Shown: positions 8,722 to 32,131 of the stretch, piece after piece
Numbering within the stretch: position 1 is the first letter of the stretch
How the letters are laid out: each line of letters begins with the position of its first letter
Virus record (IMG/VR): IMGVR_UViG_3300028805_000089
Span: 1 to 64,000 of that record
Strand: one strand, 5' to 3'
Length of the DNA stretch: 64,000 bases
Source: a virus
Lineage: Duplodnaviria; Caudoviricetes
The notes under the pieces: model-generated
What the model was told of the DNA's origin: nothing
The model's database searches: none
The model's input: only the letters and a program-made list of their open reading frames with translations
Position numbers and translations under genes: made by a program

Positions 8722-8910
8722 TATTAACTAACTATCTGTGTATAATCGGAAACCAATTGTGGATAAATTAACGCAATGTGCGAAAATAAGCGAAAGCCAT
8801 ATTGCGCATCTTGCGTAAATGCGCTATGCTTTTTTCTGACAGGCCGGTCACATCTTATGGATCTTCTGGACGTTAGTTAGGATCATCCGATCCGGAAAGG
8901 AAACCCGTTT

Positions 8911-13219: not shown

Positions 13220-14374
13220 GTGATGCCCGCTTTGATCAAGGCATTTAAGATTCGTCTCTATCCCACCAAAGAACAGGAAGCACTCATGTGGCGGCACGTC
13301 GGTGCCTGCCGGTTCATCTGGAACCACTTCCTCAACCTTCAGGAAGAACGCTACAAGGCCGGGGAAAAGTTCATGTCCGCTTTCGATATGTCCTACCTGA
13401 TGCCGCCCCTCAAAAAGCAGGAAGAGTTCCAATGGCTCAATGACATCGCCGCGCAGACGCTCAACCGTGAACTGGCCGACCTTGCAGACGCGTACAAAGA
13501 CTTCTTCAAAAAGAAAGCGCGGCACCCGAAATACAAGAGCCGCAAAAGAAGCAAAGCGTCTTTCCCGACAGCGCAGATCATTTACTTCGAGGATGGGAAA
13601 GTCACCGTCGGCAAGATAGGGAAGGTCAAGTACAAAACAGACTTCGATCTGCCACAGGGTAAAGGGAACAAGTTCACCAACCCGCGCATCTCAAACATCT
13701 GCGGCAAATGGATGCTTTCCTTCGGGATGGATTGCCCGGAAGAACACCCGGAACTGAACGCAGGAACATCGGTTGGAATCGACCTCGGCATCAAGGAACT
13801 TGCCGTTGCGTCTCATCAAAAGCAGATGATAACGGTCCCCAACATCAACAAGACCGACGAAGTCCGGCGGCTTGAAAAAAATCTCCGTCACCTTCAGCGC
13901 TCGGTTTCCAGGAAGTACGAAGCGGCGAAGAAGCGCACCGGGCGGTACGAAAAGTCGAACAACATTCTCAAGGAAGAGGAAAAGATTCGCCGCCTCCACC
14001 ACCGTCTCGACTGCATCCGTCAGAACCACGTCCACCAGGCAACCCACTACTTTGTTTCCCTACTTCCGGAACGCATCGTCATGGAAGACCTCAACGTCAC
14101 CGGGATGATGAAAAACCGCCACCTCTCCAAGGCCATCGGCCAGCAGGGGTTCGCGGAGTTCCGAAGGCAGATCGCTTACAAGTCCGATTGGAACGGCATC
14201 GAAACCGTCTATGCCGACCGGTTCTATCCATCCTCCAAGACATGCAGCGTCTGCGGCCACATCAAGCCGGACCTTAAACTCAGCGACAGGACGTATGTGT
14301 GTTCTGAGTGCGGCGCGGTACTCGACAGGGATTTCAACGCCGCCGTGAATCTTGAGAACTATGTCCCGCAATAG
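13220..14374 (+). CDS. tnpB: TnpB-like RNA-guided nuclease (candidate compact Cas12-like effector), 384 aa
   Basis: N-terminal KAFKIRLYPT HTH; RuvC-I GIDLG, RuvC-II VMEDL, Zn finger CSVC/CSEC, RuvC-III DRDFNAA all intact; no adjacent tnpA. Confidence 0.93.
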   Translation: MMPALIKAFKIRLYPTKEQEALMWRHVGACRFIWNHFLNLQEERYKAGEKFMSAFDMSYLMPPLKKQEEFQWLNDIAAQTLNRELADLADAYKDFFKKKARHPKYKSRKRSKASFPTAQIIYFEDGKVTVGKIGKVKYKTDFDLPQGKGNKFTNPRISNICGKWMLSFGMDCPEEHPELNAGTSVGIDLGIKELAVASHQKQMITVPNINKTDEVRRLEKNLRHLQRSVSRKYEAAKKRTGRYEKSNNILKEEEKIRRLHHRLDCIRQNHVHQATHYFVSLLPERIVMEDLNVTGMMKNRHLSKAIGQQGFAEFRRQIAYKSDWNGIETVYADRFYPSSKTCSVCGHIKPDLKLSDRTYVCSECGAVLDRDFNAAVNLENYVPQ

Positions 14375-14383
14375 GGATCGATA

Positions 14384-14485
14384 AAGGGGCGTCGTCACGT
14401 CCTGAAGCTGCGGAGCGTTATACAAACCCAAGTAGCCTCGGCAAAAGGGAACGCTGTGAAACAGTAACTTGCGCGTAAGCGGGTG
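14384..14485 (+). ncRNA. tracrRNA/omegaRNA-like scaffold 1
   Basis: Hairpin GGGGCG-TCGTCA-CGTCCT; AGCGTT/AACGCT stem; anti-repeat CTTGCGCGTA (14468-14477) complementary to repeat TACGCGCAAG. Confidence 0.75.
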
Positions 14486-14570
14486 AGATAGCAAACGTGA
14501 GGTGACGGTACTGCTGTAACCGAACGCGAGGATGACGGGTGTGACCCACGCCTTTTTCCCTCCTCTTTCT

Positions 14571-14723
14571 TCCGTCTCTCCCGTGCTCGCACACGATGAC
14601 GGTGCATTGACGCCTTCAGTTCCTGCCCGCACCTCCAGCGCACGCACAAGATGACGGCACTATGTCGGTAGCATGGTCCTTGTCACCGGTCGTTGCACCT
14701 TCCGCGTACGCGCAAGATGACGG
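14571..14723 (+). CRISPR. Mini array 1: three 32-nt repeats (first degenerate)
   Basis: Repeats 14571-14602, 14626-14657 and 14692-14723; last two end CAAGATGACGG, first ends CACGATGACGG; spacers 23 and 34 nt. Confidence 0.7.
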
Positions 14724-14764
14724 GGACAACGAATGAAAACATGAAATCAAATCATAAGCACATT

Positions 14765-14868
14765 AAGGGTGTCGTCACACCCCAAAGCTGTGGAGCGTCA
14801 CACCTCCTGAGTAGGTTCGCCGAAAGGGGACGCTGAGAAGCAGTAATTCGAGCGCCATGCGAGGTGCG
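14765..14868 (+). ncRNA. tracrRNA/omegaRNA-like scaffold 2
   Basis: Paralog of scaffold 1 with compensatory stem changes (GGGTG/CACCC, AGCGTC/GACGCT); anti-repeat TTCGAGCGCCATGCGAGGTGCG (14847-14868). Confidence 0.75.
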
Positions 14869-14913
14869 TGAAATGACGGGGAGTGATAGAAAGGTGATCC
14901 GCTGATCCTGTAA

Positions 14914-15201
14914 GTCGCACCCCGCGCACGCGCACGAGATGACGGACCTTCCAAGTCCTATTCATGCGTTCCTTCCACTATCACACCTCGCACACGCGCA
15001 CGAAATGACGGTTGACAGCGTTTCCCGCATGAGCAGAAACGCAGACATCACACCTCGCACACGCGCACGAAATGACGGACCTGACGGTTAAGGTCCTGCC
15101 GGTTGCACCTCGCGCACGCGCACGAAATGACGGGTATCCAGCGCGAAACGGTTGCTGTAGATACGCCGCGTCGCACCTCGCGCACGCACCCGATATTACG
15201 G
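14914..15201 (+). CRISPR. Mini array 2: five 32-nt repeats, consensus GTCGCACCTCGCGCACGCGCACGAAATGACGG
   Basis: Repeats 14914-14945, 14980-15011, 15047-15078, 15102-15133 and 15170-15201; unique spacers of 34, 35, 23 and 36 nt. Confidence 0.85.
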
Positions 15202-15233: not shown

Positions 15234-16175
15234 ATGCCCATCACAAAAACACCTACCTCCTCTCACGACGAATGGATTGCCCTTCGCTCCAAGTACATTG
15301 GCGGCAGCGATGCCGCTGCCGTCGTGGGCCTGAACGCCAACTGCACCCCCTTCTCCCTGTGGATGGAAAAGACCGGACAGCAGCCACCGTTTGAAGGGAA
15401 CCTCGCCACCAAGACCGGCACCTTCCTTGAACCCTTCGTGGCCCAACTCTTTGAGGAGCAGACCGGCAAGAAAGTCCGGCGCGAAAACGCTTCCCTGTTC
15501 AACAGCGATTACCCCTGGGCCATCGCCAACGTGGACCGCATGGTGGTTGGGGAGGACGCAGGGCTTGAGATCAAGACCACCTCGGCCTTGTCCACAAAGA
15601 AATTCCGTAACGGCGATTATCCTTCAAATTATTATGTGCAATGCATGCATTACCTCGCCGTCACCGGGAAATCTAAATGGTATCTGGCCGTCCTCATCGG
15701 CAACTTCGACTTCCGCGTCTACGAAATCGAACGCGACGAAGACGAAATCGCCGCCCTGATGGCTGCTGAAAAATCCTTCTGGGAAGATTACGTCCTCACA
15801 AAAACCGCCCCACCTCCCGACGGCCAGGAACCCACGGACGAATCCCTCCGCATCCTTTACCCGGAATCCAACGGCGAGTCCATGTCCCTCTTCGGGCGCG
15901 ACTCCCTCCTCGACCGCTACTTTGACCTTGCCGACCAGATCAAGGAACTCCAGCGCCAACAGGACGAGATCAAGCAGACAATCCAACTGGACATGGGGGA
16001 GACGGAAACCGCCCTGGCCGACAATTACAAGGTCATCTGGAAAACCCAGACCCGCTCCACCTTCGACGCAAAGAAATTCACTCAGGACCACCCCGATATC
16101 AAAACCGATGATTACTGGAAGACAAGCACATCCCGCGTCTTCCGGATCAATAAGAACAAGCCCAAGGAGGACTAA
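15234..16175 (+). CDS. YqaJ-family viral recombinase exonuclease
   Basis: WIALRSKYIGGSDAAA, ANVDR, GLEIKT, YYVQCMHYLAV; AAGGAG RBS. Confidence 0.93.
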   Translation: MPITKTPTSSHDEWIALRSKYIGGSDAAAVVGLNANCTPFSLWMEKTGQQPPFEGNLATKTGTFLEPFVAQLFEEQTGKKVRRENASLFNSDYPWAIANVDRMVVGEDAGLEIKTTSALSTKKFRNGDYPSNYYVQCMHYLAVTGKSKWYLAVLIGNFDFRVYEIERDEDEIAALMAAEKSFWEDYVLTKTAPPPDGQEPTDESLRILYPESNGESMSLFGRDSLLDRYFDLADQIKELQRQQDEIKQTIQLDMGETETALADNYKVIWKTQTRSTFDAKKFTQDHPDIKTDDYWKTSTSRVFRINKNKPKED

Positions 16176-16178
16176 CCT

Positions 16179-17276
16179 ATGGCAAACGCAGGAATCATTC
16201 AGCAGACTCAGGCCAAGAAGAACGTAGTCAGCACGGCTCAGAAACCTAAGACCATGCGGGACTACATCAAGTCGATGGAAGGCGAAATCGCCAAGGCGCT
16301 GCCCTCCGTCATCACCCCGGAGCGCTTTACCCGCATCGTCACCACCGCCCTTTCCTCCAACCCGGAACTGGCCAACACCACCCCTGCTTCCTTCCTCGGC
16401 GCGATGATGACAGCCGCGCAGCTCGGCCTCGAACCCAACACGCCCCTGGGGCAGGCTTACCTCCTGCCGTACCGCAACAAAGGCGTCCTGGAAACCCAGT
16501 TCCAGCTTGGCTGAACACTTTACGGTCAAGTAAAACTGCGTGAACCCTATTACTCAGGGGTGTACGGCGTAAGCCGTGCTAACGGGGAAACCCGCCGTCA
16601 AAGGGCAATCCCGTGCCACATACCCAGAATGTGGTGTAGAGACTATCGCTGATGAATGTAAGCGAGTAGGACCGAAGATGAGTTACGGTCCCAAGTGCGC
16701 AGCTTCCGCAAGGAAGAAGATATAGTCCGGCCCAACGGGATGGGAAACCGTGGGATCGCTGATAAAGGTTTAATCGACCTCGCCTACCGCTCCGGAGAAA
16801 TCCAGATCATCCAGGCCCACGCTGTCTACGAGAACGACGAATTTGAATACGAATTCGGCCTTGAACCCAAACTGAAGCATAAGCCCGCCGTGCAGGATCG
16901 CGGCGAACCCATCGCCTTCTACGCCATGTTCAAGACGAAGGATGGCGGTTACGGATTCGATGTGATGAGCGTTGATGATGTCCGCGCCCACGCCGCCAAG
17001 TATTCCAAATCCTACGGCAGCAGTTTCTCTCCGTGGAAAACCAACTTCGTAGAAATGAGTTTAAAAACTATTTTGAAGCGCGTCCTCAAGTACGCCCCCC
17101 TCAAGACCGAATTCGTCCGTGGAATCACGCAGGATGAAACCGTCCACGACACCATCGGCGCGGACATGACCCTGGAAGAGACCCGTCAGGTTGAAGGTGA
17201 CGGCGAGATTTCCGAATCCGTAGAATACGTCGATGCTGAGACCGGCGAGGTCGCCGGGGAAGCGCCCAAAGCATAA
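16179..17276 (+). CDS. recT: RecT-family ssDNA annealing protein, interrupted by a group I intron (exons 16179-16512 and 16762-17276; 282 aa spliced)
   Basis: Joining the exons restores ETQFQLG-Y-KGLIDLAYRSG; also contains LGLEPNTPLGQAYLLPY. Confidence 0.93.
16513..16761 (+). ncRNA. Group I intron, 249 nt, no homing endonuclease
   Basis: Exon ends in T, intron ends in G; P1 CTTGGCT/GGTCAAG with a U-G pair at the splice site; core elements AAACTGCGTGAA, AATCCCGTGCC, GTAGAGACTAT, AAGATATAGTCC. Confidence 0.92.
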
Positions 17277-31900: not shown

Positions 31901-31972
31901 GGGCATATAGCACAGAGGTAAGTGCGGTGGCCTTATAAGCCATTCATCATGGTTCGACTCCATGTATGCCTA
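31901..31972 (+). tRNA. tRNA-Ile (anticodon TAT), no encoded CCA
   Basis: Cloverleaf: GGGCATA/TATGCCT acceptor, GTGGC-CTTATAA-GCCAT anticodon arm, CATGG-TTCGACT-CCATG T arm. Confidence 0.85.
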
Positions 31973-31975
31973 TCC

Positions 31976-32056
31976 GCCAACGTAGCGCAACCGGCAGCGC
32001 ATCGGCCCTGTAATCCGGACCGGAGGTTGCGGGTTCAACTCCCGCCGTTGGCTCCA
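31976..32056 (+). tRNA. tRNA-Thr(TGT)-like, atypical
   Basis: GCCAACG/CGTTGGC acceptor with CCA; loop CCTGTAA (C33), one stem mismatch, enlarged variable region. Confidence 0.6.
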
Positions 32057-32131
32057 GCCAGCATAGTTCAGCGGCAGAACATCGGTTTTGTAAACAGGGT
32101 GTCGTGGGTTCAAATCCCTCTGCTGGCTCCA
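32057..32131 (+). tRNA. tRNA-Thr(TGT)
   Basis: GCCAGCA/TGCTGGC acceptor with CCA; loop TTTGTAA; one anticodon-stem mismatch. Confidence 0.7.

Follow-up and report, generated by a model that had tools for sequence, protein, structure and literature searches.

A TnpB protein, two guide RNA scaffolds and two short repeat-spacer arrays lie together in the genome of a temperate phage, where they probably form a domesticated, TranC-like system that derives from an IS607-family IStron and would serve in phage–phage conflict by cutting rival phages. As judged from its sequence features, the system would constitute a new IS607-derived variant of TranC. The scaffold is recognizably the ancestral RAGATH-18 guide RNA, and its last stem is now predicted to arise by pairing of an anti-repeat with the 3′ arm of every repeat in the array. 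The arrays differ between close relatives, and some of their spacers match related phages.

Genome context

The stretch of DNA analysed (the window) covers positions 1 to 64,000 of a virus record of 88,717 bases, rated 100% complete. The genome carries two integrases, repressor and cro-like genes, yqaJ and recT, and tail genes, and is therefore that of a temperate phage. The scaffolds and arrays occupy the space between tnpB and yqaJ in the phage early operon (Table 1). A promoter scan found no convincing promoter directly upstream of scaffold 1 or scaffold 2. Searches of the complete genome found no serine-recombinase tnpA/resolvase (controls gave matches, 12/14) and no cas1 (the search control gave matches). 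The assemblies that contain two related phage proteins bear the label Lentisphaeria bacterium, and the sample tags suggest the ruminant gut as the origin of this phage. AcrIC5 anti-CRISPR genes are found in related phages (L132:819-1061 and the contig of P0123), which fits hosts with type I-C systems; the AcrIC5 search of this genome gave no match, its positive control being silent as well.

Table 1. Features of the tnpB module and its surroundings (positions in the window)
Feature	Position	Strand	Remarks
tnpB, IS607/RAGATH-18 type, 380 aa	13232..14374	+	TTG start; ORF open from 13220; stop TAG
Scaffold 1, 5′ hairpin	14384..14406	+	Pseudoknot loop TCGTCA (14392-14397)
Scaffold 1, RAGATH-18 core	14407..14467	+	Rfam RF03064, 59.5 bits
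Scaffold 1, anti-repeat and tail to own TGACGG	14468..14508	+	Anti-repeat 14468-14477
Array 1, four TGACGG-ended repeats of mixed and partly decayed types	14509..14723	+	Repeat ends 14538 (partial), 14602, 14657, 14723; spacers ~14, 32, 23, 34 nt
Spacer-length segment after last array-1 repeat, into scaffold 2	14724..14763	+	Common to L023/L024
Scaffold 2, 5′ hairpin	14764..14786	+	Loop TCGTCA (14772-14777)
Scaffold 2, RAGATH-18 core	14787..14846	+	Rfam 48.8 bits; 73% identical to scaffold 1 core
Scaffold 2, anti-repeat and cis hairpin to TGACGG	14847..14879	+	
Array 2, five 32-nt repeats	14880..15201	+	14914-14945, 14980-15011, 15047-15078, 15102-15133, degenerate 15170-15201
yqaJ and intron-split recT	15234..17276	+	Downstream; fixed module context in every relative with enough sequence

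The TnpB effector and its ancestry

By their sequences, TnpB and its guide RNA belong to the IS607 RAGATH-18 TnpB family. In profile searches the protein scored above the cut-off for RNA-guided TnpB and did not reach those for Cas12f2 (63 vs 450 bits) or C2c8 (76 vs 350 bits). Its best match in the PDB is ISFba1 TnpB (8IAZ, E 2.6e-70), which is also the closest by fold (TM 0.73, 36% identity). The RuvC triad (D188/E289/D371, numbered from 13220) is intact both in the window and across the whole phage TnpB clade, so that on sequence grounds the protein is catalytically intact, whilst lacking the tnpA or intron that would make it mobile and keeping its place in the early operon. The positions with which ISFba1 TnpB reads its TAM, K80 and K83, align to Q and N in the phage protein, and the predicted TAM-contact region occurs as at least four alleles within the clade. 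Alleles of two TAM-contact segments (~65-80 and ~108-118; those of P0001, P0003, P0009 and the window) are common to otherwise different proteins, a sharing that suggests recombination of specificity modules.

In the nearest large group of relatives (~60% identity), the hairpin and RAGATH-18 core are the same and are followed by a short closed stem, one A, CAACGG and then unrelated flanks. A group I intron lies upstream in these sisters, which are therefore IS607-type IStrons, and their guides are one-piece. IStrons of this type terminate in CGG, and their insertion point follows a GG (PMC13565253). Set apart from this group is a phage clade of nine protein clusters (74-89% identity, members up to 100%), whose 14 proteins form one branch (SH-aLRT 100) in a TnpB tree made by a quick method without bootstrap. 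Its loci were recovered only from ENA/Logan/JGI assemblies; scaffold-pattern scans of GTDB genomes and IMG/VR returned only chance matches inside unrelated genes. Eight distinct loci could be told apart, three with two scaffolds (the window, L014/15/127 and L023/24) and five showing one, and a scaffold with an array was present in all seven of the distinct loci long enough to show one (7/7). The clade loci share the early-operon position before yqaJ, carry neither intron nor transposase, and gave no match to the IStron 5′ part. Identity as a mobile IS607 transposon or group B IStron was ruled out by the absent tnpA, the lack of an IStron 5′ match and the fixed position in the phages. Spacers differ almost entirely even between phages whose TnpBs are 98% identical.

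The stop codon of tnpB is a TAG, and among the tRNAs of the genome is one of 88 nt with the anticodon CTA (genome 74105-74192). Amber read-through would append 30 residues encoded across scaffold 1 (window 14372-14467). This extension is not conserved, a TAA standing at the same place in three relatives, and a coding-density comparison gave no discrimination. Three further tRNA genes lie in tandem at window 31901-32131, with the anticodons TAT, TGT and TGT.

Scaffold RNAs and their pairing with the repeats

The RNA directly 3′ of tnpB is a RAGATH-18 RNA, of the kind already known to form the core of IS607 TnpB guide RNAs (PMC11061315). Both scaffolds exceed the Rfam gathering score for this family (44.9 bits) and thus lie far beyond chance. 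The original prediction, which held that two scaffolds pair with the repeats of their own arrays, missed that the scaffolds are RAGATH-18/IS607 RNAs, that half of the repeat is of type I-C and that spacers match phages, but its motifs are all present: CTTGCGCGTA lies at 14468-14477 as the exact reverse complement of 14707-14716 in the repeat 14692-14723, the scaffold-2 segment was located as 22 nt at 14847-14868, and the TCGTCA loops begin at 14392 and 14772. The compensatory changes described for the hairpin stems were also recovered: one C-G pair has become T-A through a double change, one G.T has become G-C, and all 19 sequences keep the stem fully paired (100%), a result for helix 1 only. 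The scaffolds do not end in the anti-repeat, as had been claimed. Each continues to a TGACGG of its own (14508, 14879), either tail can fold back in cis, and each scaffold is also a complete one-piece guide (for scaffold 2, 14847-14879 plus 14880-14913).

The pseudoknot that had been proposed between the hairpin loop and the 3′ end, as in omegaRNA, found support: loop and end covary across five sequence variants. In the sisters TCGTTG would pair with CAACGG, in the window TCGTCA would pair with TGACGG, and more distant elements show three other combinations. Since this covariation extends across sister elements, the pseudoknot is well supported and is inherited rather than new. In every locus, the nucleotides that immediately follow the RAGATH-18 core base-pair with repeat positions -8 to -16, and this is the register of the ancestral closed stem; the split stem likewise retains its ancestral form of 8-9 bp, one A and a hexamer whose partner is the loop of the 5′ hairpin.

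Three types of anti-repeat and repeat exist among the loci, and comparison across homologous loci, suggested beforehand as a check, found that the anti-repeats covary with their own repeats: the in-register score was 7.34/9 for cognate and 5.07 for non-cognate combinations, with a permutation p of 0.00045 that overstates independence because the loci are related. A dual-RNA module of scaffold and repeat-spacer serving one TnpB is supported, as a matter of predicted pairing. The claim that the two pairs in the window are orthogonal fared worse. Scaffold 1 scores 6.6 with its own repeats and 6.0 with array 2, cofolding gave it no discrimination (ddG -9 to -17 kcal/mol with its own repeats, -13 to -16.5 with array 2), and in a fold of the whole transcript it pairs with an array-2 repeat at 0.53 and with the best of its own at 0.3. 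Scaffold 2 alone discriminates, scoring 7.5 with array 2 vs 4.1 with array 1. Discrimination in the window is thus one-way, scaffold 2 preferring its own array and scaffold 1 not. At L014 both pairs are orthogonal in register (8.0 vs 2.3 and 7.0 vs 1.0). Only one array-1 repeat matches scaffold 1 perfectly over 10 bp, the other three reaching 4/9, 6/9 and 8/9 in register.

The module had been regarded as duplicated. A second scaffold is indeed present, but the limited identity of the two cores suggests import from another lineage over local duplication, and the single scaffold of five of the eight distinct loci makes any duplication optional. Scaffold 2 is nearer to the single scaffolds of L016/L020 (84%) than to scaffold 1, and in L021 a scaffold-1 core is joined to a scaffold-2-type anti-repeat, tail and array. 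The simplest reading is that phages exchange scaffold-array cassettes and that matched pairs are kept by linkage, and are not selected as insulated channels.

Repeats, spacers and phage targets

Nine repeats in all end in TGACGG or TTACGG; scaffold 1 is followed by four of them and scaffold 2 by five. Many of the repeats and spacers of array 1 are eroded. Array 2 extends beyond the range first given for it, which left out the fifth, degenerate repeat; it also contains a 9-nt stub ending at 15087, and its spacers are of 34, 34, 35, 14 and 36 nt. Its repeats consist of a type I-C-like part (nt 1-14) and a second part (nt 15-32) that holds the partner of the anti-repeat and an IS607-type CGG end. 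Compared with real type I-C repeats, pre-selected to begin GT/AT, nt 1-14 score 11.9/14, several being one base off, against 6.4 for shuffles (best shuffle 7.6); the last 18 nt are unlike type I-C (7.7/18). The I-C arrays were collected by a 3′-half repeat pattern, a full I-C-repeat pattern having given no matches, and one of them was verified beside cas5c, cas8c, cas7c, cas4 and cas1c. Intact phage repeats are 32 nt long, as in type I-C, and full-length spacers are mostly 33-38 nt in both. The phage arrays share with type I-C the 32-nt repeat, the 5′ arm and spacers of 33-37 nt; identity as a type I-C array was rejected, the palindromic stem and conserved 3′ handle being absent from the repeat. 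True type I-C arrays are carried by several IMG/VR contigs (L159, L195, L196, L208, L212), and in L159 and L208 a Rha-family gene, rather than identified cas genes, lies near the array.

Four spacers of relatives match related phages, where 0.1 would be expected from shuffled spacers. One matches the recT intron junction, which is present in the window too, with the flank TTT. Another matches an early gene of L022 with the flank TTC, and the carrier's own near-self copy has seed mismatches. A third, a shortened spacer of the close relatives L023/L024, matches window 8889-8905 over 17/17 nt with the flank TCC, so that this phage may be a target of these sisters. The fourth matches an early gene of L128 with the flank AAA, and the locus that bears it has a TnpB with another TAM-contact allele. 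The putative pyrimidine-rich TAM is read from three matches, one of them only 17 nt long and none perfect over its full length; TTC, TTT and TCN are type I-C acquisition motifs (PMC5602111). A match of an L024 spacer to MT835534 was weak, with a non-matching flank and tail, and was discarded. No target was found for the spacers of the window among INPHARED phages and PLSDB plasmids or in their own genome and 16 related loci, nor for two of them in an exact scan of IMG/VR.

Proposed mechanism and alternative explanations

The module would be transcribed together with the early operon, and scaffold and repeat would then pair, either in trans after trimming or at long range in cis. TnpB would load the paired RNA, with the ~20 nt after TGACGG guiding the cut, and the targets would be co-infecting or resident related phages bearing the sequence beside a pyrimidine TAM (TTC, TTT, TCC). 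New spacers could come from the type I-C adaptation machinery of the host, or by recombination with I-C or sister arrays; a supply from type I-C is allowed by the I-C-like 5′ half, the 32-nt repeat and the 33-38 nt spacers. The second scaffold would have arrived with its own array through recombination between phages, and would add spacers and a matched anti-repeat, with one-way cross-talk in place of two insulated channels. It is possible, and we propose it tentatively, that the repeat is a functional fusion in which the I-C 5′ half draws spacers from host Cas4-Cas1-Cas2 or host-array recombination, the rest is the IS607 end that TnpB requires, and the target motif has been retuned from G-rich to a TTC-type PAM.

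Pairing in trans may be dispensable for the array, since each scaffold is by itself a complete one-piece guide, and this counts against the main reading. The one-piece guides could then work alone, each consisting of scaffold, own TGACGG and the next 20 nt, with the repeats as a reservoir of guide cassettes that a deletion or RecT-mediated recombination moves up to the scaffold. In favour of this, TGACGG closes every scaffold and most of the tails can form a cis hairpin; frequent recombination is evident from the mosaic repeats, the stubs and the short spacers, and the joint in L021 fits the same picture. We regard this as unlikely, because such hairpins have little stability and many wobble pairs (-2 to -12 kcal/mol), because Watson-Crick pairing with the anti-repeat is better preserved in the distal repeats, and because the phage-matching spacers are mostly distal. 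That selection has instead kept the two tracr:crRNA pairs of the window insulated, as orthogonal channels to a single effector, would agree with the preference of scaffold 2, the in-register orthogonality of L014 and the recurrence of the two-scaffold layout at three loci; it is made distinctly improbable by scaffold 1, which pairs with array 2 as well as with its own repeats, by the mixed repeat types of array 1 and the five loci that show one scaffold, and by linked inheritance of scaffold and array, which explains the covariation without selection for insulation.

There is very little likelihood that the array feeds a host type I-C Cascade, as a phage mini-array or an RNA anti-CRISPR, with TnpB using only the adjacent guide. 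The I-C-like 5′ half, repeat and spacer lengths, PAMs and AcrIC5 in relatives would all suit such a role, but the I-C 3′ stem arm and handle have been replaced by the anti-repeat partner and TGACGG, so that neither the I-C hairpin nor the crRNA 5′ handle can form, and the 3′ part of the repeat covaries with the TnpB scaffold instead. Decay is equally hard to credit: whilst the eroded array-1 repeats and the window spacers that lack targets might be expected of a leftover from repeated right ends of IStrons that no longer has a function, the RuvC site is intact across the clade, position and architecture are conserved at 73-99% protein identity, spacers turn over and match phages, and no IStron 5′ remnant is found. 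The domesticated TranC-like system set out above is the reading carried forward below.

Relation to known systems

TranCs (Jin et al., Cell 2025) are reported to have arisen repeatedly from IS605 and IS607 TnpB, according to the accounts in PMC13565253 and bioRxiv 10.64898/2026.03.27.714800. As they are portrayed there, TranCs, including the phage-encoded CauTranC9, share with the phage system a TnpB-sized effector, a guide split into a tracr-like scaffold and a short array, the lack of adaptation genes and spacers that match phages. The window contains a TnpB-sized effector with an adjacent array of variable spacers, and a tracr-like RNA derived from a reRNA scaffold in which the anti-repeat replaces the terminal stem in the same register as in the one-piece sisters. 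The preprint's descriptions set the phage system apart from TranC clades 3 and 9 (bioRxiv 10.64898/2026.03.27.714800); clade 9 is described with ~414 aa, 38-nt repeats and an ISDra2-like fold, against 380 aa and 32-nt repeats here. LaTranC matches the phage TnpB only over residues 254-378, with 18-21% structural identity. Compared with TranCs as described in these accounts, the phage system differs in its RAGATH-18 scaffold, its I-C/IS607 hybrid repeat, its scaffolds that are still complete one-piece guides and its optional second scaffold. Its distinctive features are the traced RAGATH-18/IStron ancestry, the hybrid of I-C and transposon in the repeat, the apparent change of TAM and the optional second cassette.

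With ISFba1 (8IAZ; Ren et al. 2024, PMC11061315) and group B IStrons, the system shares the protein family, an RNA core directly after the gene, the CGG 3′ end and a pseudoknotted scaffold. Those elements are mobile, take one guide from the flanking DNA and use G-rich TAMs (AGGAG, GAGGG), whereas the phage system has no tnpA or intron, a fixed position, an array, altered TAM contacts and pyrimidine-rich target flanks. Like Cas12f, Cas12n and the V-U TnpB branches (Altae-Tran et al. 2023, PMC10691335), it has an array downstream of the effector, tracr-type pairing and no cas1/2; unlike Cas12f and Cas12n, it falls below the family cut-offs, has no REC/WED expansion and shows 14-19% structural identity to Cas12f. 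Identity as Cas12f or Cas12n was ruled out by the family HMM cut-offs and the unexpanded REC/WED.

How CRISPR arrays first became attached to TnpB was left open, duplication of the omegaRNA guide segment and capture of a pre-existing array both having been considered (PMC10691335), and the phage repeat looks like a fusion of the two. Because the one-piece ancestor (60% identical) can be aligned with the split form and with type I-C, the apparent source of half the repeat, the step of array gain lends itself to direct testing. Few array-associated nucleases described are as small as this effector, which may use a short pyrimidine TAM, as against the 5-nt G-rich TAMs of its family. Were the fusion reading true, the locus would be a snapshot of a transposon nuclease gaining adaptive memory at 380 aa and without adaptation genes of its own, and one phage family would hold swappable TAM-contact alleles together with interchangeable scaffold-array cassettes.

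Other occupants of the same genomic slot

Sister phages that lack tnpB (L128:8655-9980 and L132:8345-9980, also L129-L137) have, ahead of yqaJ, a gene of 243 aa (phrog_4652) together with an array of GGY/NN pentamers, 600-900 nt long, a combination that resembles a VIPR system. The GGY/NN pentamer pattern is that of VIPR guide RNAs in inter-phage conflict (bioRxiv 10.64898/2026.04.26.720920). VIPR and the phage TnpB system are alike in being phage-encoded, RNA-guided and, for the TnpB system probably, directed against other phages; their proteins and RNA codes are unrelated, and VIPR silences whereas the phage TnpB has an intact nuclease site. Read with a 1-nt skip rule, a unit of the L132 array matches yqaJ of the TnpB-array phage L016 at 21/24 positions (shuffle 17). 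The predicted fold of the Vipr-like protein was uninformative (pLDDT 33). Taken with the phage-matching spacers, the VIPR-like slot points to competition among related temperate phages, and its sharing by the two systems points to a dedicated site for RNA-guided phage–phage conflict.

Downstream of yqaJ, recT is interrupted by an intron-like insert (window 16514-16760; ~200-250 nt, without an Rfam match), the 5′ junction of which is targeted by a spacer of L020. In the relatives L017 and L128, a GIY-YIG gene is found at the insert site.
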